This document shows, in pieces, positions 10,148-47,943 of a stretch of DNA of 64,000 nucleotides. Under the pieces are notes generated by a model, which saw only the letters and a program-made list of their open reading frames with translations, made no database searches and was not told the DNA's origin. The translations under genes were made by a program, and so were the position numbers. Location: NCBI GenBank assembly GCA_965206285.1, contig OZ242205.1, positions 4,564,478 to 4,628,477 of the forward strand, in the 5' to 3' direction. This stretch comes from Vicinamibacterales bacterium (GTDB taxonomy: Bacteria; Acidobacteriota; Vicinamibacteria; Vicinamibacterales; UBA8438). Each line of letters starts with the position of its first letter. Position 1 is the first letter of the stretch.

Positions 10148-12157
10148 ATGCGTTATCAGAAATGGGTCGGGATGTCGGCGGCGTTGGTTCTGGCAGCGAC
10201 GGTCGCCGCGCCCGCGGTGTCGGCGCAGGAGGACGGCGAGCGCCGCTACCTGCTGGAGCGGATCGACGACGCGGCGGTCGTGCAGCTCTATGCCGACGGC
10301 TTCGAGGCGCTGCCGCTGCGCGACAAGACGCTCATCTGGCATCTGTCTCAGGCGGCGCTGGCCGGGCGTGACATCTACTACGACCAGCGCTACGAGCACA
10401 ACCTCGAGATGCGCGAGGTCCTCGAGGAGATCGTCACCCATTCCGGCGGCGTCGACGGCGGGACGCTGGCCGCGATCGAGAAGTACACGAAGCTCTTCTG
10501 GATCAACACCGGTCCGTTCAACAGCCTCACGGCCCGCCGGTTCGTGATGGAGACGACCCCCGCCGCGTTCGCGGACGCGGTCCGGGCGGCGGCCGGGGCC
10601 GGGGCCGAGTTCCCGCTGCGTGACGGCGAGGACCTCGGGCAGATGGCGGAGCGGATGGCGCCGCTGTTCTTCGATCCCGACTTCGAGCCCATCGTCACCA
10701 ACAAGACCCCCGGTCCCGGCGAGGACATGCTGCTGGCGAGCGCGAACAACCTCTACAAGGGCGTCTCGATGGCCGACCTGGAGGCGTTCGAGGAGGAGTA
10801 CCCCCTGACCTCGCGTCTCGTGAAGGTCGACGGCCGGCTCGTCGAGGAGGTCTACAAGGTCGGCGGCAGGTACAGCGACGAGATCTCCGGGATCATCCGC
10901 CACCTGGAGGCGGCGGTTCCGTACGCGAGCGAACCCATGGCGAAGGCGCTGCGCGCGAACGTCGCCTACTACCGGACGGGGTCGCCGGTCGACCAGCGGG
11001 CCTACGACATCGCCTGGGTCGAGGACCAGAGCTCGTCGGTCGACACCATCAACGGCTTCACCGAGGTGTACATGGACGCCCGCGGGGCCAAGGGCGCGTG
11101 GGAGGCGCTGGTCTTCTACGTCAACCCGGAGAAGACGGGGGCCATCCGGACGCTGGCCGAGAACGCCCAGTGGTTCGAGGACCGGATGCCCTGGGACCCC
11201 CGCTACCGCAAGGCCGGCGTGACCGGCATCACCGCCAACGCCATCGACGTGGTCGTCGAGACCGGCGACTCCGGCCCGCTGACGCCCATCGGCATCAACC
11301 TGCCCAACGACCAGACGGTGCGCGAGCAGTACGGCAGCAAGTCGATCTCGCTGTCGAACGTGAACGAGGCCTACGAGCTGTCCCGGTCCGGGAGCTACCG
11401 GCAGGAGTTCGCGTGGACGGAGGAGGAGGCGGAGCGCTCGGGGCAATGGGGCAGCCTCGCCGGCGAGATGACCACCAACATGCACGAGGTCATCGGCCAC
11501 GCCTCGGGGCAGCTGGCGGAGCGGCTGGGCGGCTCGGCCCAGCCCTACCTGAACGAGCAGTACTCGGCCCTCGAGGAGGCGCGGGCCGACCTCATCGGGC
11601 TCTACTTCCTGGCCGACCCGAAGCTCGTCGAGATCGGCGTCCTCCCGGCCGAGGCGCAGGAGGACATCGTGCTCGCCGAGTACGAGGCCTACACCCGCAA
11701 CGCCCTGCTCCAGCTCCGGCGGATGCGCGAGGGGAGCCAGATCGAGCAGGACCACATGCGCAACCGCCAGATGATCGTCCACTGGCTGATGGCGAACACC
11801 GAGGCGATCGATCGGCGGACGCGCGACGGCCGGACGTACTACGTGATGGTCGATGCCGAGGCGTTCCGCGCGGGGGTGGCGACCCTCCTCGCGGAGGTGC
11901 AGCGCATCAAGTCGGAGGGCGACTACGAGGCGGCCCGGACGCTGTTCGAGACCCACGGCATTCACTTCGATCCCGCCCTGCGCGACGAGATCGTGGCCCG
12001 GGTCGACGCGATCGGTCTGCCGTCGTACTCCGGGTTCGTTCAACCGAAGCTGGAGCCGGTACGGAACGACGCGGGCGAGATCGTCGACGTGGAGATCTCC
12101 TACCCGCGGGACCTGACCGCGCAGATGCTGGAGTACTCCGGCAAGCGGATGCCCTGA
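10148..12157 (+). CDS. M49 family metallopeptidase (dipeptidyl-peptidase III-like), secreted
   Basis: Frame of ORF 10085..12157, started at Met22. Signal MRYQKWVGMSAALVLAATVAAPAVSAQ. Zinc motifs HEVIGHASGQ and EEARADL correspond to the M49 HExxGH / EExRAE(D) pair. Confidence 0.8.
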   Translation: MRYQKWVGMSAALVLAATVAAPAVSAQEDGERRYLLERIDDAAVVQLYADGFEALPLRDKTLIWHLSQAALAGRDIYYDQRYEHNLEMREVLEEIVTHSGGVDGGTLAAIEKYTKLFWINTGPFNSLTARRFVMETTPAAFADAVRAAAGAGAEFPLRDGEDLGQMAERMAPLFFDPDFEPIVTNKTPGPGEDMLLASANNLYKGVSMADLEAFEEEYPLTSRLVKVDGRLVEEVYKVGGRYSDEISGIIRHLEAAVPYASEPMAKALRANVAYYRTGSPVDQRAYDIAWVEDQSSSVDTINGFTEVYMDARGAKGAWEALVFYVNPEKTGAIRTLAENAQWFEDRMPWDPRYRKAGVTGITANAIDVVVETGDSGPLTPIGINLPNDQTVREQYGSKSISLSNVNEAYELSRSGSYRQEFAWTEEEAERSGQWGSLAGEMTTNMHEVIGHASGQLAERLGGSAQPYLNEQYSALEEARADLIGLYFLADPKLVEIGVLPAEAQEDIVLAEYEAYTRNALLQLRRMREGSQIEQDHMRNRQMIVHWLMANTEAIDRRTRDGRTYYVMVDAEAFRAGVATLLAEVQRIKSEGDYEAARTLFETHGIHFDPALRDEIVARVDAIGLPSYSGFVQPKLEPVRNDAGEIVDVEISYPRDLTAQMLEYSGKRMP

Positions 12158-13168: not shown

Positions 13169-14329
13169 ATGAACGTCGGCATCGTCTGTTATCCCACCGT
13201 GGGCGGCAGCGGCATCGTCGCCACCGAGCTCGCCAAGGCGCTGGCCCAGCGCGGTCACGAGGTTCGGCTCATCAGCACCGAGATGCCGTTCCGGGGGCCG
13301 GACTTTCAGGTCGGGCTGGTCTTCCACCCCGTCCAGACCCCCGGCTATCCGCTTTTTCGCGAGCCGCAGCATCTGTTGTCGCTCGCCAACAAGATCGTCC
13401 AGGTCAGCCGCGAGCACCGCCTGGACGTCATCCACGCCCACTACGCCATCCCGCATGCCGCCGCCGCCTATCTGGCGCGGCAGATTCTCGCGAATGCCGA
13501 AGGCGCGAACGTGCCGCGGGTCATCACCACCCTCCACGGCACCGACGTGACGCTGATCGGCAGCGACAGCTCGTACTCGGAGACCGCGGCGTTCTGCATC
13601 GATCAGTCCGACGGGGTGACCGCGGTGTCGGAGAGCCTGCGCGCCGACACCTATCAGCAAATGTCGGTGCGCGCCGACATCCGGGTGATTCCGAACTTCC
13701 TCGATTGCGAGATCCACCGCCGCTCGGAGGACCCCGCGTTGCGCGCCCGTTTCACCGGGGACGACGACGCGGTGCGTCTCGTGATCCACGTGTCGAACTT
13801 CCGGCCGGTGAAGCGGGCCGAGGCGGTGATCGACATCTTCGACCGCATTCGCCGGCGCGTGCCGTCGAAGCTGCTCCTCGTCGGCGACGGGCCGGACCTC
13901 GACCGGGCGGGCCGCCGGGTACGGAACCTCGGGCTGACGGATGCCGTCGTCCAATTGGGCGAGCAGGAACAGGTGGTGCCGCTGCTGTCGGTCGCGGATC
14001 TGTTCCTGCTGCCGTCGGCGCAGGAGAGCTTCGGGCTGGCCGCGCTGGAGGCGATGGCGTGTCAGGTGCCGGTGGTGGCGTCCCGGGTCGGCGGGCTTCC
14101 CGAGGTGATCGAGAACGGAATCACCGGCTTTCTGCACGACCCGGACGACCTCGATGGCATGGCGTCGAGCGGCGTGGCCGTGCTGTCGGATCCCGCCCGG
14201 CATCGGGCGGTCGCGGCGGCCGGGCTCACCGCCGTCCACCAGCGGTTCTGCGCCAACGCCATCGTACCGAAGTACGAGGCGTTCTACACCGAGGTGCTCG
14301 GGCGCGAACCCATGCCCGCGACGCGCTAG
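13169..14329 (+). CDS. bshA: N-acetyl-alpha-D-glucosaminyl L-malate synthase (GT4 glycosyltransferase, bacillithiol biosynthesis)
   Basis: 386-aa ORF. The N-terminus MNVGIVCYPTVGGSGIVATELAKALAQRGHEV closely parallels the Bacillus BshA N-terminus (ITCYPSVGGSGVVATELGK..GHE). C-terminal GT4 motifs are ESFGLAALEAMACQVPVVASRVGGLPEVI. Confidence 0.8.
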   Translation: MNVGIVCYPTVGGSGIVATELAKALAQRGHEVRLISTEMPFRGPDFQVGLVFHPVQTPGYPLFREPQHLLSLANKIVQVSREHRLDVIHAHYAIPHAAAAYLARQILANAEGANVPRVITTLHGTDVTLIGSDSSYSETAAFCIDQSDGVTAVSESLRADTYQQMSVRADIRVIPNFLDCEIHRRSEDPALRARFTGDDDAVRLVIHVSNFRPVKRAEAVIDIFDRIRRRVPSKLLLVGDGPDLDRAGRRVRNLGLTDAVVQLGEQEQVVPLLSVADLFLLPSAQESFGLAALEAMACQVPVVASRVGGLPEVIENGITGFLHDPDDLDGMASSGVAVLSDPARHRAVAAAGLTAVHQRFCANAIVPKYEAFYTEVLGREPMPATR

Positions 14330-14461
14330 TGGTATGTCCCAGAAATAACCTTGCGGTTGCTCGCATGTGGCCGAACGGGTCGTCGAACGGCGATTCCGGC
14401 CCGAACCGTCGAAACGCCTCGCAGATCAAGCGTCAACTTGTTCAAGTGACACACCACTAGC
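14324..14461. repeat. 14-bp inverted repeat pair flanking a ~110 bp lower-GC segment
   Basis: GCTAGTGGTATGTC (14324-14337) against GACACACCACTAGC (14448-14461) gives 13/14 complementary positions. The interior carries CTTGCGGTTGCTCGC and CGGCGATTCCGGCCC, which resemble modules of the dispersed family. Confidence 0.6.
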
Positions 14462-14466
14462 GCGAT

Positions 14467-14631
14467 CGCGCGACCTGACGGTCGCGTTGGACGTTTCGCT
14501 GGCGCGGGCGCAAGCTCCTGGCCCGGAAATCGTCGGCTGTGGCTCCGATTGCCGCTCAACCAACCCTGCCAGGAGTCTGCACGGCTTCTGCGGCTCAGAC
14601 TCCTGGCCCGGAAACCGTTGCCTGCGGCTCC
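14467..14631. repeat. composite copy of the dispersed repeat family (two tandem half-elements around an 11-bp-arm hairpin)
   Basis: Contains CGCGCGACCTGACGGTCGCGTTGGACGTTTCGCTGGCGCG. This is followed by CTCCTGGCCCGGAAATCGTCGGCTGTGGCTCC..CAACCAACCCTGCCAGGAGTCTGC, and by CAGACTCCTGGCCCGGAAACCGTTGCCTGCGGCTCC. CCAGGAGTCTG and CAGACTCCTGG are inverted. Confidence 0.75.
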
Positions 14632-14709
14632 TTGCTGCCCGACGGGCCCTCGGCCTCGGCCACGCCGCCCCGTCCGCGAGGCCCCGCCACCGGGTATACT
14701 CGGAAGACG

Positions 14710-17412
14710 ATGACAAAGATGCGTGCACTGGCGGCAAGCGGAGCCTTGTGTATTTCCCTGGCCGCCCCGGGGGCGACGTTGCGGGCCCAGCCCGCGGAAG
14801 CGGTCAACGGCCGGACCGCGCTCGGGCTGGTGCTGCGGCAGATCAACAACACCGGCACGTTCATGATGGCCACGGCGCATCCCGATGACGAGATCAACGG
14901 GTTGCTGGCATTGTTGAGTCATGGCGAGGGCGTGCGCACGACGCTGGTCACCGCCACCCGCGGCGACGGCGGACAGAACGAGATCGGCCCGGAGCTGTTC
15001 GACGCCCTGGCGGTGCTGCGGACCGAGGAGCTGCTGGCCGCGCATCGCCTGGACGGGGCCGAGCAGTTCTTCACCCGCGCGGTCGACTTCGGCTACTCCT
15101 TCAGCCGCGACGAGACGTTCGAGGCGTGGGGGCGCGAGGTGATCCTGGGCGATTTCGTCCGCATGATTCGCACGCTTCGACCCGATGTCATCGCCGGGAT
15201 GAGTCCCGACGGCGCGGGTGGGGGGCAGCACCATCAGGCCTCGGCGGTGCTGGCGCGGGAAGCCTATGCGGCGGCCGCCGATCCCACGCGGTTTCCGGAG
15301 CAGCTGGCGGAAGGGCTGCGGCCGTGGCAGCCGCGGAAGTTCTATTTCATGGACGGGTTCCCGGCCTTCCGCTTCGGCGGCGGTTTCGGGCGCACCGCCC
15401 CCGGCGGGCCCGGCGGCCCGCGGGGCGGCCGCGGGCAGGCCGCGCGGGCCGGGACGGTGTCCATCAATCTCGGCCGATTCGACCCGTTGCTGGGGCGCAC
15501 CTACGCCGAGATCGGCAGCCAGGCCCGCGGCATGCACAAGTGCCAGGGGATGTCGCCGATCGTCAGTCTGCCGGGGCCGGCGTCGATCCGCTACCGGTTG
15601 GACGACACCGTCATCTCCGGCCACGCGGGTCAGGCCGAGCAGGCGCTGTTCGACGGGGTCGACACCTCGATCGCGGGGCTGGCCCGGCATGCCGGGCCCC
15701 AGCCCCCGCCCGGCCTCGTGGAGGGCCTGACCACCCTCGCCCGGCACGCCGCCACCGCCCTGCAGGTCTACGAGCGGGGCGCCGTCGAGGCCCAGCGGGT
15801 GACCCTGCTGGCGGGTCTGGGGGCGGTCCGCACCCTCCGGGACCAGCTCGGTACGTTCGGCCTGTCCGACGAGGCGGTCTTCGAGATCGACTTCCGGCTG
15901 GCGCAGAAGGAGGCCCAGTACGAACGGGGGGTGGTCCTGGCCCACAACCTGCGGCTCGACGTCTTCGCCGACGACGGCGTCGTCACCCCGGGACAGCCGG
16001 TCACGGTGCTCGCGCAGGTGGCGAACCACGGCGGCGCGGCCGCCACCGTCGAACGGATCCGCTTCGAAGGCTTCGCGGCCGCGGAGTCCACGTGCGGCAC
16101 CGGCGCCCTCGCCCCCGGCGCGGTGTACCGCTGCGAGACCCCGTTGAGTCTGCCGGCGACCGCGCCGCCGACCGACATCCACTGGGAGCGGCTGCCCGAC
16201 GCGGCGCGATATCGGGTCGATGCGGACGTGCCGTTCGGGGCGCCGTTTCGACCGACGCCGTTCCGCGCCACTTTCGAGCTCGATTTCGGCACCGCCCGAA
16301 TCGCCGTCGACCGGCCCATCGCCTTTCGGTCCGGCAGCGACCTGTTCGCCGGCGAGAAGCGCATGGAGCTGCAGGTGGTGCCGCCGTTCGCCGTCGACAT
16401 CGCCCCGCAGATCGCCATCGTGCCCGTCGGGGCGGCCGAGCCCCGCGATGTCCGGGTCACCATCCGCAACGGGGGCGTCCAGCCCGCGAGCGGGGTCGTC
16501 AGCCTCGAGCTGCCCGAGGGGTGGCGGCAGACGCCGGACCGGATACCGGTGGCTCTCGCGCGTGAGGACGAGGCGCGAACCGTCCGCTTCGCCGTGCATC
16601 CGGCCCCCGACGCGCCCGCCGGAGACTACCGCATCGGCGCGCGGTTCGAGGCCGGCGGCGCGCAGTTCGACCGCGGGTATCAGGTGGTGGAGTATCCCCA
16701 CGTCGGCCGCCGGCACCTGGTCCACGCCGCCGAAACGGCGATCAAGGTGATCGACGTCCGGCTGGATCCGGAGCTGCGGGTCGGCTACGTCGACGGGGTC
16801 GGCGACGAGGTGCCGGCGGCGATCGAGCAGCTCGGTGCGCGGTTGGAGCACATCTCGAGCGATGAGCTGGTGTTCGGCGACCTGTCCGGGTTCGATGTCA
16901 TCGTGACGGGGGTCCGGGCCTACGAGCGGAACCAGGACCTGCGGGCCAACAACGGCCGGCTGCTGGAGTACGTCGAGGCGGGCGGCACTCTCGTCGTCCA
17001 GTACAACAAGTTCGAGTTCAACGAGGCGCAGTACGGACCCTATCCGGCCCGCGTCAGCCGCAACCGCGTGACGGACGAGTACGCACCGGTGCGGATGCTG
17101 ACTCCCGACCACCCGGTATTCGGTTTTCCGAACGCGATCTCCGAGGCGACCTGGAGCGGCTGGGTGCAGGAACGCGGACTGTACTTCCTCGGCGACAAGG
17201 ATCCCGCGTACGCCGACCTCGTCGAGCTGCGCGATACGTTCCCGTCCAACCCCGGCGCCAAGCGCGGCGCCCTGGTCGAAACGCGGTACGGCGAGGGGCG
17301 CTGGCTGTATGTCGGGCTCGGCCTCTGGCGGCAGCTTCCCGCCGGCACCCCCGGCGCCTACCAGTTGCTGGCGAATCTGCTCAGCCTCGGCGGGGGTTCC
17401 CAGGCCCCGTGA
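14710..17412 (+). CDS. large secreted PIG-L/LmbE family deacetylase-domain protein
   Basis: Frame of ORF 14539..17412, started at Met58. Signal MTKMRALAASGALCISLAAPGATLRAQ. PIG-L motifs are MMATAHPDDEINGLLA, TRGDGGQNE and HHQAS. A long C-terminal extension ends in a region that looks like a ThuA/class-I amidotransferase-like fold (weak). Confidence 0.8.
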   Translation: MTKMRALAASGALCISLAAPGATLRAQPAEAVNGRTALGLVLRQINNTGTFMMATAHPDDEINGLLALLSHGEGVRTTLVTATRGDGGQNEIGPELFDALAVLRTEELLAAHRLDGAEQFFTRAVDFGYSFSRDETFEAWGREVILGDFVRMIRTLRPDVIAGMSPDGAGGGQHHQASAVLAREAYAAAADPTRFPEQLAEGLRPWQPRKFYFMDGFPAFRFGGGFGRTAPGGPGGPRGGRGQAARAGTVSINLGRFDPLLGRTYAEIGSQARGMHKCQGMSPIVSLPGPASIRYRLDDTVISGHAGQAEQALFDGVDTSIAGLARHAGPQPPPGLVEGLTTLARHAATALQVYERGAVEAQRVTLLAGLGAVRTLRDQLGTFGLSDEAVFEIDFRLAQKEAQYERGVVLAHNLRLDVFADDGVVTPGQPVTVLAQVANHGGAAATVERIRFEGFAAAESTCGTGALAPGAVYRCETPLSLPATAPPTDIHWERLPDAARYRVDADVPFGAPFRPTPFRATFELDFGTARIAVDRPIAFRSGSDLFAGEKRMELQVVPPFAVDIAPQIAIVPVGAAEPRDVRVTIRNGGVQPASGVVSLELPEGWRQTPDRIPVALAREDEARTVRFAVHPAPDAPAGDYRIGARFEAGGAQFDRGYQVVEYPHVGRRHLVHAAETAIKVIDVRLDPELRVGYVDGVGDEVPAAIEQLGARLEHISSDELVFGDLSGFDVIVTGVRAYERNQDLRANNGRLLEYVEAGGTLVVQYNKFEFNEAQYGPYPARVSRNRVTDEYAPVRMLTPDHPVFGFPNAISEATWSGWVQERGLYFLGDKDPAYADLVELRDTFPSNPGAKRGALVETRYGEGRWLYVGLGLWRQLPAGTPGAYQLLANLLSLGGGSQAP

Positions 17413-36455: not shown

Positions 36456-36752
36456 GTGAAGGCGCCTGCTCTCGTCGAGCTGGATGCTCCATCGACACGA
36501 ACCCCTCGTACTCCGGGACGTGGACTGGTTCCTGTCCACGTTCGACGTCCTCAAGGACGGCCCCGCCGTCACCCGCGCGCTGACGGCCTTGTGTCGCGAG
36601 GTTCGGTGGCCGGGCGTCAGATCCACGATGCGAACATCGTGGCCACCATGCTCGCGCACGGCGAACGGCGCCTGCTTGTGTTCGACGATGGCGACTTTCG
36701 GCGATACGGCGACCGCATCGAGTTGATCGATCCAACGATGATGCCGGAGTGA
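36456..36752 (+). pseudogene. PIN-domain (VapC-like) gene remnant, frameshifted and lacking an N-terminus
   Basis: One frame reads FDVLKDGPAVTRALTALCREV. Another frame reads GRQIHDANIVATMLAHGERRLLVFDDGDFRRYGDRIELIDP, a typical PIN C-terminus. No intact start or first acidic motif was found. Confidence 0.45.
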
Positions 36753-36796: not shown

Positions 36797-37225
36797 TCAG
36801 CCCGATTTCCCCGATGAGGCCGGGCCGTGGTCAGGCAGGAGGAATCTGCACGACGGGCCCGGCGCACGGCCAAGGCGGGCGTCGAGCGTCGCCAGGGGTA
36901 CCGCCAGCGCCTCGGCGCAGGCGACGTACCAGGCGTCGTAGGTGGTCAGGTTGAGGCGCAGCTCCCAAATCCGCGAAGCGAACGGTTCGAAGCTCAGCAA
37001 CTCGATCGGAAGATCGACGATGTCCCGATAGCCCGCCGTCGCCTCCGGGCCGGAGATTTCACGCGCCAACTCGGCGCGCCGCAACACGTTGCCGGCTTCT
37101 ATCGGGGCCAGCTGTGGCGCCATCAGGGGTCTTTCGGCGGTCACCCTGCGAGCCCAGTCGCCGTCGGATCCGGTGTCCATCACCGCCGCCACGAGAACCG
37201 AGGCATCGACCACGACCGGCGGCAT
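36797..37225 (-). CDS. vapC: PIN-domain toxin
   Basis: 142-aa ORF. VVVDASVLVAAV.. and TYDAWYVACAEALAVPLATLDARL. Confidence 0.8.
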   Translation of the reverse strand: MPPVVVDASVLVAAVMDTGSDGDWARRVTAERPLMAPQLAPIEAGNVLRRAELAREISGPEATAGYRDIVDLPIELLSFEPFASRIWELRLNLTTYDAWYVACAEALAVPLATLDARLGRAPGPSCRFLLPDHGPASSGKSG

Positions 37226-37231
37226 CGCGTC

Positions 37232-37468
37232 TCAGCTCCGGCCGGCATCGAGGTGGCGGAGAATCTCGCTGGCGGGCAGGCGTGTCCGCGTGGCGGTCTG
37301 GCGCTCGCGCACCCGTTCGAGCCATCGATCGACGGACGGCCTCGACGCCAATCGTTCGAGCTCGCCGCGCAAGTACTCCTGCATCGACTTGCGGGCCAGG
37401 GCGGCGCGGGCGGCGAGCTCGTCACGCACCGCTTCCGGGACGTTGCGCACCGTGATTTGAACGGCCAT
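37232..37468 (-). CDS. vapB: ribbon-helix-helix antitoxin (FitA/VapB-like)
   Basis: Met46 of ORF 37232..37603. MAVQITVRNVPEAVRDELAARAALARKSMQEYLRGEL. It lies 6 nt upstream of vapC. Confidence 0.75.
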   Translation of the reverse strand: MAVQITVRNVPEAVRDELAARAALARKSMQEYLRGELERLASRPSVDRWLERVRERQTATRTRLPASEILRHLDAGRS

Positions 37469-37563: not shown

Positions 37564-39290
37564 TCACGCCAACGCGACATGCCGAATCGGCTCCTCCCGA
37601 CACGTGCGAACGCCCTGCATGTCAGAGCCGCGCTGGCGAACGGTTCGAAGCGCGAGTTCCTCAGGGAGGCAGGAGGAGAACTTCAGTGAGTCCGTAGCGT
37701 CGGCCGTTGTGGGGAAGAGATCGGCGGTGGTATCCCCGGGCAGGTCATCCAGTCGCCGTCTCAGGTCCTCGATGCTGACGTCATCGCGGAGCCGGATGGA
37801 GAGATTGTCCTCACGGGAGGTTGGGAGATGAAGCGGCCCAGCCAGCTCTCCGAGGATCGCGTTCGCCCGGAGGCCGGCGAAGGTCCACCAGCGGCTGGCG
37901 CCCGCTTGGTCGCGGACGATCGCGGTACCGGTAGCGTCAACCCAGGAGAAGTCTTCTTGGAACTCGTCGAGCTTCATCCGGGCGCGCTTGCTGATATCGA
38001 TGCGGAGCGATCCCTCGACAAGGACTTGGCGGATAGCGCGGCAAAGGTCGAAGGACAGCGGAACACCCGGTCCGATCCAGCGAGAGCGTCCCCTCTCGGT
38101 GGAGGCCTTCACGTAGGCGACGCGGTGGTCCCAGTCGATGTGAGACACCTCCCAGCTCCTGCCTGCGAGCAGGAGCACGACGGGACCGTCGCGGCGGACC
38201 TGGAAGGAGACCGTCGTCGGACGTTGCGAGGAACAGGCAGTTCCGGACGGTTCCGGGCCGTCGGCCGGTGCGGCCCAGTCGCTGGAGGAAGGAGGCGACG
38301 GTGGCGGGCGCGTCGATCTGGATGACGCGGTCGAGGTCGCCGACGTCGATTCCCAGCTCGAGCGTGCTCGTGGCGACGATGACACAGTCACGGCTCTGTG
38401 AGAACGCCTCCTCGGAACGTCGGCGCTCGTCCAGCGCAAGTGAGCTGTGGGAGACGAAGGTCTCGGTACCGGCTTGACGGAGTTCCGCGGCCAGCGCCTC
38501 GACACGGGCTCGACTGTCGCAGAACACGAGGCGTTTCTCGCCTCGGTGCAGCGCTGAGACTACCTTCGCTGCGTTCCGGATGCTGCCTACGTAGTCCAGA
38601 TGCGCTGTTGCCGAGCTCGCAGCTTCGCCCCCCCGGCGCGATGACGCGCCGCGGTCGGGAAGAAGCGGGGGCGAGCCATTCGAGGAGCGCCTCGGGATTC
38701 CCGATGGTCGCGGAGAGACCGAGGCGCTGAATCTCACGTCCCGCCAAGTGGCGCACTCGCTCCAGGACCGCGAGCAGATGCCAGCCTCGATCGTCGCCGG
38801 CGAAGGCGTGCAACTCGTCTACGACGACGGCTTGGATGTCCTGGAAGAGCACGCGGGGCTCCGCGCGGCTCGAGACGAGCATGACCTCGATGGACTCGGG
38901 TGTCGTGAGCAGAAGGTCGGGCCGTTCCTGCATGATGGCCCGCCGTCGGGAGGCGCCGATGTCGCCGTGCCAGAGCGCGACCCGCCGGCCGACCAGGGTG
39001 CCGTAGGCCCGAAGGCGCGACTCGATGTTGTTGAGCAGAGCCTTGATTGGACAGACGTAGAGCACGCTCAACCCGCTCCAGCGTTCGGTCAGCATCCGCG
39101 AAAGCAGCGGAAACACCGCCGCCTCGGTCTTGCCGCCAGCGGTGGGCGCCAGCAGCAAGGCGTGATCGCCGTCCAGCACGGGAGGAATGGCGTGCTCCTG
39201 GAGCGGCCGCAACGACGTCCACCCGAGCGAGTTGACGATGTGATGTTGAAGGGCGGGGTGCAGCCGCTCGAACGCGGGCTTGTGATTCAC
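37564..39290 (-). pseudogene. brxHI: Lhr-like DEAD/DEAH helicase of BREX (BrxHI-type), split over three frames
   Basis: Frame a (39290 to about 38630): LLLAPTAGGKTEAA, VVDELH, LSATIGNPE. Frame b (about 38626-38212): RLVFCDSRARVEALA..VATSTLELGIDVG..QRLGRTGRR. Frame c (about 38211-37564): VSFQVRRDGPVVLLLAGRSWEV... The first switch sits at a run of seven G (C7 on the plus strand, 38628-38634). Confidence 0.75.
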
Positions 39291-40600
39291 GGCTCCAGCT
39301 CGATGTCGTCCGGGGTGGTTGCGGCGCGGGCGTTGCGCTCGACATCGGTCAGCTCGCCGTCGGTCAGGGTCAGGGCATAGTCGCGCCGCGGGTCGAAGTC
39401 CGGGTGGAGGTCGATCCGATCGAGCACGTCCTGGACCAACTTCTTGAGGAAGACCCGTGGCGCGATGCCGATTCGGCCACCCAGACCGCCGGTGACGGCG
39501 CGGGCGAGACTGCTCAAGTACGGATCGTCCGCTCGATCAAGAACGCGTCCGGGGGCGGCGGCGCCCTCGGCGTAGAGATCACGAGTCTTCCGCCCCACGG
39601 CCTCCAGGCGCGAGAGGTCGAAGTTCTGCAACCGCACCTGCGGCGCCCGCGGGTTGTCGAAGCGCTGCGCGCCGGAGAAGTCCACGGCGAGCCGCTGGGC
39701 CAGGGGTGGCAGGCGCTGCACCCCTTGCGGTCCCTCGAAGAACGCGGGGGTCCCTGTGATCACGAGGTAGAGGCCCGGGAAGCGGCCAGAGTCGATCTCG
39801 TCGATTACCTGCCGGAGGGCATTCAGGCTCTTCTCTCGCACGTCGCTACGCACGCGTTGCAGGGTCTCGACCTCGTCGAGCACGACGACGAGCCCCGAGA
39901 AGCCCGAATCGCGCAGGATGACGAGCAGGCCCTGGAGGAAGCTGAGTGCGCCGAAGTGGTCGAGGTCGCCCTTGACGCCCGCGTACCGCTTGGCGGCGGC
40001 GCCGACGTTGGGCTGCCCGCCGACCCAGGCCAACAGCGCCTCGGCCATGGCGCGGTCGTTCCCGGCGACGGCCCGTCGATAGGCGCGGAGCGCCGCTGCA
40101 AACGACGGAGCGTGGCGGGCAACCTGCGCGAGACGCCGTTCCATGAGGTCGGTCGTTCGGGCCAGGAGCGCCTCCGCATCACCCTCCGCCACGCTGCCCT
40201 CGGCGAGCACGTCTTCCTCCAGCGCGTAGAACCAGTTGTCGAGGATGGACCGGAGGGCGCCCTGCTGGGTATCCGCGGTCGAGAGGCGTTCGGTCAGCCG
40301 GCGGTACACCGTCTCGAGGCGGTGCAGCGGCGTCTCCGTCTCGGAGATCTGCACCTCGGCCGCGGCGAACCCTTCGCGTTTCGCGCGTTCCTGCAGCCAC
40401 CGCACGAAGAAGGTCTTCCCGCTGCCGTACTCTCCGCGAACCGCCTTGAACTTCGCGCTCCCGGCTGCGACGGATGCCAGCTCTTCGCCCACCACGGCAA
40501 GAGCCGGCAGGCCGATGCCGATGGCGCGGGCGTCCGGATACCGGTCGCGGATCGACTTCACCTGGGCGAGTACCTGCGCCAACGATGGGACGCCGGTCAT
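39287..40600 (-). CDS. brxD: BREX system ATP-binding protein BrxD (DUF2791-type)
   Basis: Intact 437-aa ORF. Walker A GEYGSGKTFF, Walker B LVVVLDEVE. Length and the pattern ..PLHRLETVYRRL.. and ..YLVITGTP.. fit BrxD. The ATGA overlaps the downstream helicase start and an upstream frame. Confidence 0.75.
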   Translation of the reverse strand: MTGVPSLAQVLAQVKSIRDRYPDARAIGIGLPALAVVGEELASVAAGSAKFKAVRGEYGSGKTFFVRWLQERAKREGFAAAEVQISETETPLHRLETVYRRLTERLSTADTQQGALRSILDNWFYALEEDVLAEGSVAEGDAEALLARTTDLMERRLAQVARHAPSFAAALRAYRRAVAGNDRAMAEALLAWVGGQPNVGAAAKRYAGVKGDLDHFGALSFLQGLLVILRDSGFSGLVVVLDEVETLQRVRSDVREKSLNALRQVIDEIDSGRFPGLYLVITGTPAFFEGPQGVQRLPPLAQRLAVDFSGAQRFDNPRAPQVRLQNFDLSRLEAVGRKTRDLYAEGAAAPGRVLDRADDPYLSSLARAVTGGLGGRIGIAPRVFLKKLVQDVLDRIDLHPDFDPRRDYALTLTDGELTDVERNARAATTPDDIELEP

Positions 40601-40679
40601 GGGCGGTCCTTCCCGTCGCGCAGCAGCTTCCAGGTGGTCCCCATTCGCGCGCCCGGTTCCCTGCGCAGCCCGCGGCGGC

Positions 40680-41240
40680 CCCGGCGGTGCTCACGGCGGT
40701 CTCGTTCACGCGGGCGAAGAACGTCTCGTCGCCGATCTCCTCCCGCAGCCGCCGAGCGTCGTCGAAGAACCCCGCGCCGCGGTAGACGCCCGGCGTGGGC
40801 GCGTCGGGGTGCAGCTTGGCGACCCGCGCCGCATAGCCCCCCAGCACCGCCGCATCGAGGCTCGGCTTGCCGATCATGTGATAGGGCGCGAGCAGGAAAC
40901 GCCGGCCGGCGAGCCAGTCACCGTGGCGCGTGACGACGCCTTCGAGACCCTCGGCGGCGCAGGCCTCCGCGTGCTGCTGCAGCAGCAGGTGGAGCACCAC
41001 CATGAAGTGGCTCTTGCCGCTGCCGAAGCTGCCGTGCAGGTAGGCCGCCTTGCTCGAGCCGGACGCGAGCGCGCCCTTGATGAGGTCGAGCGCCCGGTCG
41101 AAGGCGTCGGCGAACTGCGGCGTCACGACGTAGGTCCGCAGCGTCTCTGCGGGCTTCGCCACGCCCTCGGCGAGCCGCAGGACGAAGTCGTCGCGGTGCA
41201 CCCGCTCGGGGATGTCGATCAGGTCGCGGAGCGGCGTTAT
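40680..41240 (-). pseudogene. pglY: 5-prime fragment (~187 codons) of pglY (DUF499 P-loop ATPase of BREX type 2)
   Basis: ITPLRDLIDIPERVHRDDFVLRLAEGV..YVVTPQFADAFDRAL..AAYLHGSFGSGKSHFMVVLHLLL..FFARVNE, after which sense is lost. The start position reads ATA. The frame runs on into brxD with no stop. Another frame ends WKLLRDGKDRP-stop at the brxD ATGA. Confidence 0.65.
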
Positions 41241-41728
41241 GCCGGGTCGGTTCCCCTGCCCATCTTCGCTGACGCCGGCTGGTGGGGGACGCCGGCTCCC
41301 GCCTCGTCGGCCTCCGAAACGAGCGCCTCGACACGCCGGGCCGCCCAGCCGACGACGGCCGCCGCGGCCTCCATGGCCTCGTCGTATTCCTCTCTCGTTG
41401 TCGTTGCTCTCTCGTCGGCCGTGTTCGGATACCTCCCGCCGCCGCTGTAGAGCGTCAGCGCCTCCCCCTTGCGGACCTCGTCGGGAATCGCCTCGCCGAT
41501 CCGTGCCGCCCGGTCGAGCAGCAGGCCGATGTCGTGCGTGTACGGAAACACTTCGCCGCGCGCGATCATCACGCCCTTGACTGCCTTTTCGGCCCCCAGG
41601 TGCGCCTCGGAGCACAACAGCCGCAGGTTCAGGCCGGGCTCGTGCTTGCCGGCGATCTTCAAGTGATCCCGCGCTTCGTCGATCCACAGTGGCGCGGCGC
41701 TCGCTTCAAGCGCCCGGCGCTGATTCAT
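41237..41728 (-). CDS. HEPN domain protein (toxin partner of MNT)
   Basis: 163-aa ORF. ..SEAHLGAEKAVKGVMIARGEVFPYTHDIGLLL.. fits the PF05168-type HEPN helix pattern. Overlaps the upstream NTase gene by 23 nt. Confidence 0.7.
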   Translation of the reverse strand: MNQRRALEASAAPLWIDEARDHLKIAGKHEPGLNLRLLCSEAHLGAEKAVKGVMIARGEVFPYTHDIGLLLDRAARIGEAIPDEVRKGEALTLYSGGGRYPNTADERATTTREEYDEAMEAAAAVVGWAARRVEALVSEADEAGAGVPHQPASAKMGRGTDPA

Positions 41729-42041
41729 AAACAGTCCTGCCTTCCCGTAGCGCCGGTGCTATCACGAGCCAATAGGAGTCCTTGTGCCGAAGGAGATCTT
41801 CCGGCCAGACGACCACGACGTCGACCGGAGGACGCGGCCTCGGCAGGTTGCGGTAGATCAGGGCCGCCGTTTTCCGTTGATGACAGTGGTCCTTCACGAC
41901 GAGGAGGTCGAGGTCGCTCGAGGAGGTCATCTCGCCCCGAGCAGCGGAACCGAACAGGATGATCTTCTCTGGCGCCACCGCGTCGACGATGCTCTCGACG
42001 ATGCGCCCGACAACGCTGTCCAGCCGCTCTTGATCCATCAT
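41706..42041 (-). CDS. minimal nucleotidyltransferase (MNT-type antitoxin)
   Basis: Met33 of ORF 41706..42137. KIILFGSAARGEMTSSSDLDLLVV carries the GS..x(9-11)..D.D NTase signature. Confidence 0.75.
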   Translation of the reverse strand: MMDQERLDSVVGRIVESIVDAVAPEKIILFGSAARGEMTSSSDLDLLVVKDHCHQRKTAALIYRNLPRPRPPVDVVVVWPEDLLRHKDSYWLVIAPALREGRTVYESAPGA

Positions 42042-42099
42042 CGCGATTATGCCGCGCCGGCCGGCGCGGCGGCAATCGCCGCAAAGGTGCCCGCCCGGG

Positions 42100-43229
42100 T
42101 CACGTGGCTTTTCTGCGGCGGCCTCGCCCCGTCCCACCGCCCGGCGGCGGCCAGTCCCGCAGCGACTCGCGGGTCAGCGAGAGCGCCCGCGCCTCGTCGT
42201 CGATGAACGCCTCGAAGTAGTCGCCCATCCCGATGTCGAACTCGGGGTCCGGCTCGTTGTGGTACTGCCGTACCCACGGCAGCAGCTCCAGCAGGGCCGC
42301 GAGCAGGGGCGCCAGCCGCTCCGCCGTCCAGCCCTCCTGCTCCCGCATCCGGCTGAAGTACCCGGCGACGGCCCGGCTCTGCTCCAGCGCGTCCAGCCCG
42401 CCCACCCGACCACCAGCGACGGGTCGGCGTCGCGCTCGCAGCCCGGCAGGCTGACGAAGCGTTCCTTGGGCACGTCGAGCTTGCCCCGCAGGCGCCACCA
42501 CACGCCCTTGCGGAAGTCGGCTGCCGCATACCGCGGCGGGACGGGGACGGCGCCGACCTCGGCCGCCTTGAGCGCCACCGCCGCTTCCGGCGTCAGTCGA
42601 TCAGGGTCCGCCGCGGGCAGGGCGACCCGCGCGTCGATGGCGTCCTCCATCCGCTGCAGCGCCCAGGTGTGCTCCCAGGCCGCCCGCTTGCGGAGCCCCG
42701 AGGGCTTGTAGCGCAGCACCGGGAGCAGCGGGACGCTCTCGTCCTCGACCAGTAGGGCCACCAGCTTCGCGACGTCGAAGTCGGCACGTCCCGTGTACAG
42801 CGCGGCCACCTGCAGGAACTCGGCATCGTCCCGCATCTGGTCCGCCAGCGTGGCGGTGGTCGTGAGGCGCGGCTCCAACCAAAGCGACGGCGCTTCCAAC
42901 CGGTCGAGCAGCCAGCCCCGGAGCGCCCGCTCCTGCTGCGTCTCCCACGGCTCGTCGTTCCAGCGGCGCTTGTACTCCGGCTGCTCGATCAGGGCCACGC
43001 CGCCGATCTCCGAGATCCCCGCACACTGGCCGACCGCGTACCGGGCGCTGGTCCGGCGGCGCATCGAGGGCATCGAGAACAACACCAACGTCGAGGCGTG
43101 CCGCTCGAACCACTTCGTCTCGACCTCGCCGGCGGCCATCTTCCGCGCGAGGACGATTTCGAAGGCGCGCTCGCCAAGGCGGACAGCGGGTACGTCGCTG
43201 GCAGACATACAGAGGTCGTCCTCTGTCAA
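42100..43229 (-). pseudogene. pglX: 3-prime third of BREX adenine methyltransferase gene pglX, with one frame change
   Basis: IEQPEYKRRWNDEPWETQQERALRGWLLDRLE, RYKPSGLRKRAAWEHTWALQRMED, LRGKLDVPKERFVSLPG and GWAGW. After a switch near 42395 it reads LDALEQSRAVAGYFSRMREQEGW..LPWVRQYHNEPDPEFD..LRDWPPP. No methyltransferase catalytic N-terminal part is present. Confidence 0.6.
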
Positions 43230-43282
43230 TCCGTAGAGCCGGTAGCAGCGCCAGTCGCGGCCGGGGGCTGCGGGCGCCGGCG

Positions 43283-43440
43283 GTTGCGGTTGGTGACGGC
43301 GCGCTGGGCTTCTGGTCCGCGTTACGGGACGTGTGGCCGAAGACGACCGTGCAACGCGACTGGTGCCACAAGCTCGCCAACGTGCTCGACAAGCTGCCGA
43401 AGCGGCTTCGACCGCGGGCGAAGCGGGCGCTACGCGAGAC
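43283..43440 (+). mobile_element. IS256-family (mutator-type) transposase remnant, ~52 codons
   Basis: AVGDGALGFWSALRDVWPKTTVQRDWCHKLANVLDKLPKRLRPRAKRALRE matches the conserved central block of IS256-family transposases (GDGALGFW..QRCW.HK..NVL..LPK). No intact ORF or ends were found. Confidence 0.7.
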
Positions 43441-43509
43441 GAGCCGGAGGACGAAGTCGTCGCGGTGGATCCGTTCCGGGATGTGGATCAGGTCGCGGAT
43501 CAGCGGCAT
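43438..43509 (-). pseudogene. pglY: second pglY 5-prime fragment (24 codons) truncated by the IS scar
   Basis: ATG CCG CTG ATC CGC GAC.. translates as MPLIRDLIHIPERIHRDDFVLRLV. By eye it is about 85% nt identical to 41165-41235. Confidence 0.6.
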
Positions 43510-44450
43510 GTCGTCGAAGGCGCCGCCGACATCGAGCGCCGTTGCTGGAGGATCTCGGGAATACGCCGTTCCGCGTGCTGAACGATGGTGACCGCGATCT
43601 GCCGAACATCCCGAAAGTCCTGCTCGGTAGTCTCCCCGCCCGAGCCCGGATACTGGGCTTCTCCCCCGTAGTCCGATAGAAGATGCAGCTTCTGCCGATC
43701 CAGCGGAGGCAGGTTCTCGCCTGCGCGCTGCGCCTGCTCGGCCAACGTCCCCAGCTTGTGGGTGAACTCCACGGCAACGCCATGCGCGGTGATGATGCCT
43801 TTCAAGGCCCGCTCCGCCGCCGCCGGGAGATTGATGCAGCGGCTGTCGAGCTCCACTTCGGGATCCGGGTTGCGGCTCTGCGCCAGCTCGCTCCGCGCCT
43901 TGCGAAGCCAATCGAGCGCTTCCTCCGGCTTGTAGAGGCGATTCTGCATCATGTCCGCCGCCCTCGCGCACCTGTTGGCGGCGCTTCCGCGCCGCACCGC
44001 GTCCGAAATCTCGACGGCCGTGGTCCTGTCGTAGACGGTGATGCCGTCGCGGAGAGCCGGCGCCAGGACCAGACTCAGACTGTCCTTGTGCCGCTCGGCA
44101 TGCTCGGGGGTGGCCGCGATGACGTCGACCGGGGGCCCTTCCGCGGACAGGCTGCACTGCGCCCGAGCCGCGAGCTCGCGGCTGTTGCAGCCCGCCTTGA
44201 CGATGAGGAGATCGAGATCGCTCCCGGCCTTCATCATCCCGCGGGCGCCAGACCCGAACAGCACGATCCGATCCGGGTCGACCGCCCGGACGATGCGCTG
44301 TACGACGTCGGCGAGGATGCGACCGTTCGGAGATCCATCCTCGTCGACCCACCCGCGTCGCGACTCGAACGAGCCGTTCGCGTCGAGCGCCGGCCGCGCA
44401 GGCGTCGTCGCCGTCGATGCGCTCATGAAGACCTCGGAATCACCTTCCAT
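43500..44450 (-). CDS. single-chain nucleotidyltransferase-HEPN fusion protein
   Basis: 316-aa ORF. NTase half: RIVLFGSGARGMMKAGSDLDLLIV..PVDVIAATPE. HEPN half: ..WLRKARSELAQS..AAERALKGIITAHGVAVEFTHKLGTL..DYGGEAQYP. The domain junction is near 44000-44020. Alternative start at Met9 (44426). Confidence 0.7.
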   Translation of the reverse strand: MEGDSEVFMSASTATTPARPALDANGSFESRRGWVDEDGSPNGRILADVVQRIVRAVDPDRIVLFGSGARGMMKAGSDLDLLIVKAGCNSRELAARAQCSLSAEGPPVDVIAATPEHAERHKDSLSLVLAPALRDGITVYDRTTAVEISDAVRRGSAANRCARAADMMQNRLYKPEEALDWLRKARSELAQSRNPDPEVELDSRCINLPAAAERALKGIITAHGVAVEFTHKLGTLAEQAQRAGENLPPLDRQKLHLLSDYGGEAQYPGSGGETTEQDFRDVRQIAVTIVQHAERRIPEILQQRRSMSAAPSTTCR

Positions 44451-44692
44451 CGACAGGGTACACCGCCGGCGGTCCGCGGCAAACTCCCACTTGGAACGGC
44501 TGCCGTGGCCGCGATTCCTGGTACCCCTCCTGACCGGCGTTCACACGCCGACATCGGAGGAACGGCGCGCGCTTGGTGTCTCTCGAGGCGGCGTGAGTCG
44601 CTTGCCCGCGACGAAGGCGCGCCGCGTGCGCGAGGCCCCTCAGCCGAATCGGCTGGACGCTGAAGCGGGGCTGCCGCCACCGACGGCTGACT

Positions 44693-45166
44693 TCAGGGTT
44701 CCGTGGACGGAGGGTGCTCCGAGGGGGGCGTGGCGCGCTCGTCCCGCGGCGCCTCCTTCGCGATCATCACTTCGGTCGCCTTGATCAGCGCCGTCGCGTC
44801 GTCGCCGCGTTTCAATCCCAGCTCGTCGAGGGCGTCGCGGGTGATGACCGCGGTCAGCCACTGGTCGCCGATGCGGAGGCGAACCTGGGCGACGAGGCCT
44901 TCCCGCCGCACCTCGTCGACGATGCCCTGCAGGCGGTTGCGGCCGCTGATGCGGACGAGCACGCCGCCGCCGCGCGGGCTGCCCTCGGGGCGGGAGGGCG
45001 GCCGGTCGGTGCGGGCGAGCAGGCGTTCGACTTCCGCTTCCGATATCCGGTGGTGTCCGCCGGCGGTGCGGGTGGTGCGGACGCCGCCGCGGTAGATCCA
45101 GTGCTTGAGGGTCGAGTAGCCGATGCCGAGACGCTCTGCCGCCTGTCTCACCGTCAGCGTGGCCAT
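44693..45166 (-). CDS. transcriptional regulator: excisionase/MerR-type HTH plus a single TOBE (molybdate-binding) domain
   Basis: Met21 of ORF 44693..45226. MATLTVRQAAERLGIGYSTLKHWIYRGGV, then ISGRNRLQGIVDEVRREGLVAQVRLRIGDQWLTAVITRDALDELGLKRGDDATALIKATEV. Divergent from modABC. Confidence 0.75.
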   Translation of the reverse strand: MATLTVRQAAERLGIGYSTLKHWIYRGGVRTTRTAGGHHRISEAEVERLLARTDRPPSRPEGSPRGGGVLVRISGRNRLQGIVDEVRREGLVAQVRLRIGDQWLTAVITRDALDELGLKRGDDATALIKATEVMIAKEAPRDERATPPSEHPPSTEP

Positions 45167-45198
45167 TCGCTCTCGCTCCCGCCTGCCGTGGTCGCGGC

Positions 45199-45226
45199 GT
45201 GACCGGCATCGGCCGATGCCGGTCAC
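45199..45226. promoter_or_regulatory. 28-bp perfect palindrome in the regulator-modA divergent region
   Basis: GTGACCGGCATCGG|CCGATGCCGGTCAC is exactly self-complementary. It is followed at 45240-45290 by a low-GC stretch, CGAATCGAATCATACTATATTGTTCAGAATGAT. Confidence 0.7.
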
Positions 45227-45273
45227 GCCGAATCGTTTGGCGAGTCGAATCGAATCATACTATATTGTTCAGA

Positions 45274-47574: not shown

Positions 47575-47664
47575 CGTGCCGGGCGCGGAAGGTCCGGCAC
47601 GCGTGCACGGAGCCGCCGCGTGCGCTATGATCGGACCTGAATTCAGACCGTTTTCGAGGTGGTT

Positions 47665-47943
47665 ATGCCGACTGCGGTTGTCAGTCTGAGCGCATTCAAG
47701 GCCAAGGCAGCACAGATGCTCGCCGACATGAAGGCCGCAGAGCACGAGATCGTCCTCACGCAGCGTGGGGCGGCGAGTGCGGTGGTGCAGGACTTCGACG
47801 CACACCAGCGCCAGCAGGACGCGCTGCTCATGTTGAAGCTCATGGTGCAGGGTGAGGTCGACATCCAGGCGGGGCGGACGACTCCGCAGGATCAGGTGTT
47901 CGCGGAGATCAAGGCTCGCTTGACCACGCCCACGGATGGCTGA
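47665..47943 (+). CDS. Phd/YefM family antitoxin
   Basis: Met3 of ORF 47659..47943, preceded by GAGGTGG. VVSLSAFKAKAAQMLADMKAAEHEIVLTQRGAASAVVQDFDAH. Overlaps the toxin gene by 8 nt. Confidence 0.75.
   Translation: MPTAVVSLSAFKAKAAQMLADMKAAEHEIVLTQRGAASAVVQDFDAHQRQQDALLMLKLMVQGEVDIQAGRTTPQDQVFAEIKARLTTPTDG

Follow-up and report, generated by a model that had tools for sequence, protein, structure and literature searches.

The window analysed here, a 64-kb stretch of contig OZ242205.1 from a Vicinamibacterales bacterium (Acidobacteriota) with a G+C content of ~71%, carries the pieces of a bacteriophage exclusion (BREX) type 2, or Pgl-like, defence locus. All coordinates are positions in this window, and L-numbers denote the related loci and contigs with which it was compared. 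The locus lies in the core chromosome, flanked by a molybdate cluster (modE-like/modABC) on one side and a short-chain dehydrogenase (SDR) gene on the other. Profile searches with PADLOC and Pfam were carried out on the open reading frames (ORFs) of the window. All BREX pieces were found on the minus strand, and a scrap of an insertion sequence (IS) of the IS256 family on the plus strand. From high to low coordinates, starting after the modE-like gene and ending before the dehydrogenase gene, the features are:

44503-44571, minus strand: pglX 3'-end scrap (~65 nt) with downstream spacer, attributed below to a putative locus A (blastn)
43500-44426, minus strand: intact nucleotidyltransferase (NTase)-HEPN fusion gene, 308 amino acids (aa) from the probable start ATG 44426, in an ORF reaching to 44450 (Pfam)
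43440-43513, minus strand: first pglY 5' fragment, ATG at 43509-43507, ~23 codons, ended by the IS scrap (tblastn, PglY aa 1-29)
43268-43441, plus strand: ~58 codons from inside an IS256-family transposase gene, without either IS end (Pfam Transposase_mut)
42100-43257, minus strand: 3' third of pglX, aa ~889-1256 of 1276, with DUF7008 (PADLOC, alignment to L010)
41706-42041, minus strand: intact minimal nucleotidyltransferase (MNT) gene, 111 aa, GS..DLD motif, in an ORF of 41706-42137 (Pfam NTP_transf_2, Polbeta)
41237-41728, minus strand: intact HEPN-domain gene, 163 aa (Pfam HEPN, 8e-15)
40666-41240, minus strand: second pglY 5' fragment, ~191 codons from the start, Walker A retained, ATA instead of ATG (PADLOC BrxC-PglY)
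40597-40665, minus strand: pglY tail, last ~22 codons in another frame, ending ..WKLLRDGKDRP-stop in an ATGA overlap with the next ATG
39287-40600, minus strand: 437-aa ORF, pglZ codons 1-34 (40600-40499) in frame with brxD from codon ~36 (40498-39287)
37564-39290, minus strand: brxHI pseudogene in three frames (PADLOC, alignment to the intact 703-aa BrxHI of L001)
37232-37462, minus strand: intact FitA-like antitoxin gene (Pfam FitA-like_RHH)
36797-37225, minus strand: intact PIN/VapC toxin gene (Pfam PIN)

Every surviving piece has the same protein family and the same place in the gene order as in BREX type 2/Pgl, whose prototype is the Pgl system of Streptomyces coelicolor and whose six genes, pglW among them, are all present in close relatives. 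The window lineage belongs to Acidobacteriota and not to Actinomycetota, however, and in its relatives additional genes stand in the pglX/pglY and brxD/brxHI gaps. When species-representative genomes were scanned with the BrxD ORF as query, 33 loci were found, nearly all from metagenome-assembled genomes (MAGs) of Vicinamibacterales or other Acidobacteriota, with up to 97% amino acid identity; a Streptomyces origin is thereby excluded. Gene order was mapped by tblastn with reference genes of related loci that had been checked by PADLOC (PglY, E=0; PglZ, 4e-258; BrxHI, 1e-299), and the conserved order was pglX-(slot A)-pglY-pglZ-brxD-(slot B)-brxHI. Because a PglW of 1422 aa (PADLOC E=0) lies upstream of PglX in L034 and L037, which came from a metagenome scan with the PglX N-terminus as query, the family is canonical BREX type 2. 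Colinear intact relatives were L001, L002, L005, L008 and L012. Slot A is empty in L001, L002 and L008, and holds MNT plus HEPN in L010, L012, L015 and L022, FitA-VapC in L005 and L006, FitA-VapC plus MNT in L004, and the NTase-HEPN fusion in L091, L110 and L111. The surviving pieces of the window are colinear with the complete type 2 loci L001, L010, L012 and L022 at 78-100% nucleotide identity. An earlier reading of the window from its letters alone (the sequence-only reading) had described an eroded, mosaic BREX type 2 locus with its pieces in this minus-strand order, and both the profile placement and the colinear intact relatives agree with it: as it had proposed, 40680-41240 falls on the PglY N-terminus, 42100-43229 on the PglX C-terminus and 39287-40600 on BrxD.

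Full-length PglX with its N6-adenine methyltransferase domain was not found at the locus; only profile positions 839-1189 of 1189 remain, frameshifted and partly inverted. In the PADLOC search, 42174-43229 matched PglX profile 839-1099/1189 (E 4e-95) and 42100-42501 matched 1092-1186 (E 2e-26), which bears out the previously described C-terminal third of PglX with a frame change near 42395. A single A has been lost at ~42392 (GGAAC to GGAC), and therefore the frame changes. The remnant also contains an inversion of ~89-97 bp at ~43000-43088, a segment that all relatives match only in reverse orientation. Read as its reverse complement, the segment gives the PglX sequence expected there, PPISEIPAHWPTAYRALVRRRIEGIENNTNV; when it is turned back, the score of the alignment to L022 increases from 49 to 130 and the reading frame is recovered. 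Since 5-nt inverted repeats (CGACG/CGTCG) flank the segment, its ends can be placed only to within a few bases. A nonsense codon at 42913 is polymorphic and carried by some population variants. By alignment, nucleotide homology to pglX begins at 43257; an extension to 43415 given by tblastn overlaps the IS scrap, lies outside this homology and was discarded. The smaller piece at 44503-44571 resembles the pglX stop region of L005, L006, L091 and L034 with 76-82% identity (blastn), and 44430-44503 is the shared upstream arm of the accessory slot, 90.7% identical to L006 4061-4135.

The IS256 scrap matched Transposase_mut profile 228-278/379 (E 8.5e-5) at the place where an IS256-family scar on the opposite strand had been read before (43283-43440). 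It showed 94.7% amino acid identity to a complete 447-aa transposase that lies beside pglZ fragments in L030, and a complete DDE transposase with terminal inverted repeats was not found for it.

No full-length PglY/BrxC ATPase is present at the locus, and pglY is represented by two heads and a tail. Stretches 43440-43513 and 41171-41244 form a 74-nt direct repeat (D1) with 85% identity, so the ~85% over ~70 nt that had been estimated by eye for the two pglY 5' ends holds on computation. Against the 5' ends of pglY in more than 20 loci the first head had 84-94% identity, and its best blastn match was L006 (94%); tblastn and blastn thus agree with the pglY start fragment reported at 43509-43438. 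Its start (ATG 43509) is overlapped by the stop of the NTase-HEPN gene. The second head matched BrxC-PglY profile 4-202/1240 (E 2e-86) and had 92% amino acid identity to PglY of L010. The sequence-only reading had noticed its Walker A, its ATA start and its loss of sense near 40690. ATA indeed replaces ATG at 41240-41238, and this one G-to-A change removed the pglY start and retained the overlapping HEPN stop (TGA to TAA). The loss of sense corresponds to a deletion junction at 40666-40669 with a GCTG overlap, at which 3,088 bp are missing compared with L010 and the frame is shifted. At the nucleotide level the pglY tail is 93-94% identical to L010, L012 and L022 (7085-7157), where pglY ends and pglZ begins, and tblastn places it at PglY aa 1227-1243. 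The frame ending WKLLRDGKDRP-stop, which had been taken for the end of pglZ, is therefore the C-terminus of PglY by alignment and tblastn, and the ATGA is the pglY/pglZ overlap. In L010, the HEPN stop/pglY start and the pglY stop/pglZ start both overlap as ATGA.

The ATG at 40600 is the start of pglZ, whose first 34 codons show 97% identity to PglZ of L010 (tblastn). Nothing else is left of the PglZ phosphatase/nuclease, and these codons are fused to brxD. The BrxD part showed 92% identity to BrxD of L010 at aa 26-438 (tblastn), matched BrxD profile 29-439/440 (PADLOC, E 2e-187) and keeps its Walker A. This gene had been called an intact brxD, but tblastn and the start of the profile match show that it is a PglZ(1-34)::BrxD(36-438) chimera, in which the own N-terminal ~35 residues of BrxD are replaced by PglZ residues; in agreement, the PADLOC and Pfam BrxD profiles match only from position 29-34 onward. 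At the pglZ/brxD junction (40497-40505), ~2.77 kb are missing, which comprise almost the whole of pglZ together with the 5' end of brxD. At the fusion point (window 40499-40525), PglZ residues 26-34 (AIGIGLPAL) resemble BrxD residues 26-35 (AFAVGLEAF). An exact-protein look-up with the chimera returned no record. The chimeric ORF is most likely an unselected by-product.

The brxHI ORFs correspond to BrxHI profile 4-221, 222-360 and 487-695 of 698 (PADLOC). The profiles agree with the Lhr-like brxHI over three frames of the sequence-only reading, but a frame change alone does not account for it, since 386 bp are also missing. An extra G stands in a G7 run at 38634, and at 38206, where the junction has a short TTCC-like overlap, the loss of 386 bp has removed ~128 aa (aa ~363-488; profile 361-486) of this Lhr/Ski2-like helicase. 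The independent contigs L104 and L105 share both lesions. The FitA-VapC cassette that follows brxHI here lies between pglX and pglY in the relatives L004, L005, L006 and L110.

In the 64 kb, tblastn with full-length PglX, PglY and PglZ queries found no further pglX, pglY or pglZ DNA, and the L034 PglW query found no match to PglW, a kinase/NERD protein of ~1400 aa (best E 0.26). This accords with the earlier statement that pglW, most of pglX, most of pglY and nearly all of pglZ are missing. Four of the six BREX-2 core genes are absent or stubs and the fifth, brxHI, is broken, while the intact ORFs at the locus are the accessory modules and the BrxD chimera. Because PglW, the methyltransferase domain and PglZ are absent and PglY and BrxHI are only stubs, BREX defence and methylation would be abolished. 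The locus is very probably a non-functional BREX type 2 (Pgl-like) relic, which combines the remains of two loci and in which the accessory modules are likely still active.

The NTase-HEPN fusion recognised earlier matched Pfam NTP_transf_2 (2e-6) and HEPN (6e-11). Its start is probably ATG 44426, because its homologues (family of 32 proteins) have 305-308 aa, and an 88%-identical homologue lies directly upstream of pglY in the BREX-2 loci L091, L110 and L111. MNT followed by HEPN had also been read correctly, with Pfam matches at 41706-42041 and 41237-41728; the two genes overlap by 23 nt. The MNT protein carries the motif GSAARGEMTSSSDLD (GS...DxD type, read from the translation) and is 95.5% identical to that of L010, and the nearest solved structure of the HEPN protein is TT1696 (1UFB). 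The ratio of nonsynonymous to synonymous substitution rates (dN/dS) was ~0.1 for MNT, ~0.3-0.4 for HEPN, ~0.3 for NTase-HEPN and ~0.2 for FitA-VapC, and because of these low values all four look constrained. They are likely the only parts that are still active. We infer that they persist as toxin-antitoxin (TA)-like addiction or abortive-infection modules, and that because of this predicted function they would resist loss and outlast the core genes.

The ancestral operon, which relatives still have intact, is pglW-pglX-(accessory slot)-pglY-pglZ-brxD-(second slot)-brxHI, and in the window what is left of two different loci of this kind stands head to tail, joined by the internal IS256 scrap. 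Locus A has left the pglX 3' scrap, the NTase-HEPN cassette and 74 nt of pglY, and locus B the pglX 3' third, MNT, HEPN, and the pglY head and onward. Locus B has lost 3,088 bp of pglY at the GCTG overlap, ~2.77 kb of pglZ and the brxD 5' end with formation of the in-frame PglZ(1-34)::BrxD chimera, and 386 bp of brxHI at the short TTCC-like overlap. The ~90-bp inversion, the ATG-to-ATA start loss and two 1-bp frameshifts are further damage, and this structure is fixed in a natural population.

A combination of two loci joined at the IS256 element is supported, because the pglY head, the pglX 3' end and the slot-A cassette are each present twice, the heads are closest to different relatives and the cassettes are of different kinds; each of the two cassettes is found in complete BREX-2 loci elsewhere. 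The sequence-only reading had left a choice between a dead locus dismantled by deletion and IS activity and a recombinant of two loci. The 3-4-nt overlaps at the pglY and brxHI deletion junctions and the internal IS256 scrap speak for the former. For the latter speaks the presence of two heads of pglY and two 3' ends of pglX, each beside a different cassette, and both alternatives hold at once. Identity to relatives shifts sharply along the locus: the pglX tail, the pglY head and the brxHI 3' part are closest to L022, MNT-HEPN to L010 (96-98%), and the brxD 3' and brxHI 5' parts to L001 (94-100%). These shifting nearest relatives fit recombination among BREX-2 loci. The dN/dS of the relic pieces against intact relatives was 0.07-0.3, near the intact-versus-intact values, which shows that the decay is recent and that most divergence predates inactivation.

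Other stages of decay were found in related genomes. L022, with the same dehydrogenase plus orf250 flank (95% amino acid identity), has pglX, MNT, HEPN, full pglY, pglZ and brxHI, and an internal brxD deletion. L033, with the same flanks on both sides (modA/modE and dehydrogenase), keeps of the core genes only scraps of pglX, the part of pglY for residues 11-66 and the final 44 codons of brxD, and its MNT and HEPN ORFs are intact. Other relatives (L003, L006, L007, L009, L011, L029-L032 and L097) are differently eroded.

Frame changes and junctions like these could come from assembly or sequencing errors in a locus that is intact in the organism, as the sequence-only reading had itself allowed. 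The frameshift in the G7 homopolymer (38634) and the single-base loss (42392) are typical error types, and many relatives are long-read MAGs. The window was compared with independent contigs, which were found by exact-protein look-up of NTase-HEPN homologues, the window HEPN and the window VapC. These contigs are short, come from many samples and were assembled with two pipelines, as SPAdes NODE contigs and as LUOR22-1 scaffolds; L095, L096 and L098-L103 together cover 46418-40411, and L104-L109 cover 39441-35664. The brxD interior (39442-40410) is outside this coverage, and no lesion is placed there. More than a dozen contigs were 98.2-100% identical to the window, with zero gaps across 44885-40411 and 39441-36328, and the lesions recur in them: both joints of the IS scrap, the inversion and the lost A in pglX, the ATA start and the two pglY/pglZ junctions, and, in brxHI, the extra G of the G7 run and the loss of 386 bp. 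Because independent contigs match without gaps across them, the lesions are real and population-wide, which excludes an artefact for every lesion; the syntenic L033 is, moreover, independently even more eroded. An intact locus hidden by errors is thus extremely improbable. A single BREX-2 locus that decayed in place, with the two pglY heads as a local duplication accompanying cassette insertion, has in its favour that in L110 a pglY head of 147 nt (6848-6994 and 7921-8067) is duplicated on both sides of the FitA-VapC cassette, downstream of the NTase-HEPN gene in an otherwise fairly complete BREX-2 locus. However, a simple head duplication does not place a pglX 3' third between the heads. A further scrap of a pglX 3' end lies upstream, the heads diverge by 15% and are closest to different relatives, and divergence to relatives changes sharply along the locus. 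We consider decay of a single locus improbable, and pure in-place duplication is less likely than the combination of two loci.

Functional readings were also weighed against the non-functional, two-locus relic. The PglX C-terminal region reportedly sets motif specificity in type 1 BREX, and some restriction systems switch specificity via partial 3' copies, so the partial pglX 3' copy might be a silent specificity cassette for phase-variable PglX target switching. Yet the 64 kb contains no full-length pglX, a recombinase gene and long inverted repeats are absent, and the copy is internally inverted, frameshifted and, in some variants, interrupted by a nonsense codon; the probability of such a role is close to nil. 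Alternatively, the locus could be a reduced but working system, either as the PglZ'-BrxD chimera with RNase/NTase modules or as a Shango-like (SngB/SngC) module of brxD-brxHI. BrxD and BrxHI match the SngB and SngC models (1e-31 and 2e-62) and form a tightly linked dyad (PMC12839542), and the chimera is an open ORF of 437 aa. But brxHI is frameshifted and 128 aa short with both lesions fixed in the population, BrxD lacks its own conserved N-terminal ~30 residues (profile from 29/440), an in-frame junction arises by accident with a chance of 1 in 3, and no SngA-like gene is present, all of which makes a working remnant very improbable. A different idea concerns the accessories: the pglX/pglY gap might serve as a dedicated site of cassette exchange, whose conserved arms would be the 3' end of pglX and the initial ~75-150 nt of pglY, and where MNT+HEPN, NTase-HEPN and FitA-VapC are swapped or stacked with copies of the pglY head and then act as selfish addiction units, outliving the BREX core and able to be carried away. 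If true, it would explain blocks of cassette plus pglY head stranded in non-BREX contexts. Such a block was found in L093 (4111-5138), where NTase-HEPN and a pglY head lie in a non-BREX defence island with Fic, DUF488, SLFN/AlbA and SIR2; its pglY head is cut at nt ~72-74, within ~2-4 nt of the window cut at 43440. We regard this idea as speculative and on the whole unlikely. A common truncation point of the pglY head as the mark of a site-specific process was rejected, as there is no universal boundary and the duplicated head of L110 has 147 nt.

Several points weigh against our interpretation of the locus as a dead relic with active accessories. The BrxD chimera is uninterrupted over 437 aa and has a Walker A, and it might retain a residual role. 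Locus A may have decayed here or arrived already truncated, and the events may have occurred in more than one order. Persistence by addiction rests on three or four eroded loci with cassettes (the window, L033, L093 and L097), in which toxicity is only predicted. Further, HEPN domains fused to MNT are usually without catalytic residues (PMC3710099), and because of this the NTase-HEPN fusion may be an enzyme instead of a toxin.

Incomplete type 2 BREX systems are common: PglW is present in ~80%, BrxHI in 91% and BrxD in 88% of 1309 taxa (PMC12839542). HEPN, MNT-HEPN fusions and PIN RNases embedded in BREX/Pgl loci have also been published (PMC12839542, 2026; PMC3710099, 2013), with the same standalone HEPN with MNT, MNT-HEPN fusion and PIN toxin plus antitoxin in or beside the operon; in contrast, the accessories here, whose toxin role is predicted, have outlived the core system. 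They share with type II/VII MNT-HEPN and VapBC (FitAB-like) pairs the arrangement of two small overlapping ORFs, the defining domains and purifying selection. Unlike the biochemically studied DUF86/HepT family, the HEPN protein here belongs to PF05168 (nearest structure TT1696). As in the IS- and microhomology-mediated pseudogenisation of defence islands, there is an IS256 scrap at a joint, there are 3-4-nt overlaps, and there are many differently eroded alleles; peculiar to this locus are only the inversion of ~90 bp and the in-frame fusion of PglZ' with BrxD. The locus, from a soil acidobacterium, is a well-documented further instance of known defence-gene decay.

It is a clean, population-validated case of the dismantling of a large defence operon, brought about by an IS, by deletions at microhomologies, by one small inversion, by the loss of a start codon and by frameshifts. 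L022 (intact save for the internal brxD deletion), the window (half-eroded) and L033 (almost gone) form an allelic series at one chromosomal site. Annotation pipelines can call "BrxD" and "PglX" here, which are really a chimera and a fragment. As a hypothesis, small TA-like accessories may outlast the system that hosts them, a point relevant to the many orphan TA genes in defence islands.

Some further observations were made around the locus. On the molybdate side, the modE-like regulator (44693-45226) has helix-turn-helix and TOBE domains (Pfam). A perfect 36-bp palindrome (18+18 nt, no spacer) at 45195-45230 stands exactly at the divergent modE-like/modA starts and is probably the operator of the regulator. 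Just past the mod transporter genes, 47659-47943 encodes a Phd/YefM-type antitoxin, a further TA module near the relic. A ~90-nt element at 44577-44667 recurs in L011 (pglZ tail/brxD gap) and in L097 (1.2 kb upstream of NTase-HEPN) with 79-86% identity. On the other side, the gap from VapC to the dehydrogenase gene holds, on the plus strand at 36456-36752, a C-terminal scrap that is PIN-like (..DANIVATML..FDDGDFRRY..); it had no Pfam match and is probably another dead toxin gene. The Rfam scan of 35-47 kb gave no RNA family at E<=0.1 and the window has no tRNAs, and an account of the locus by an att site or a riboswitch was dropped for these reasons.

Slot B, the brxD/brxHI gap, holds an insert of 0.75-1.05 kb in L022, L002, L004, L006, L015 and L029. 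The L022 insert (10971-11624) codes for a phosphoribosyltransferase-like protein of 217 aa (VVIVDDVVTSGGS), for which PADLOC gave no match. The gap between brxHI and the dehydrogenase gene is also variable, because L022 has a Fic-motif protein (HPFGDGNGRVSR; 14115-15296, minus strand) downstream of brxHI, in the position of FitA-VapC in the window. Extra brxHI scraps lie at 15265-15532 in L004, downstream of intact brxHI, and in L007 (13604-21036) pglZ-pglY-MNT is inverted relative to brxD-brxHI.

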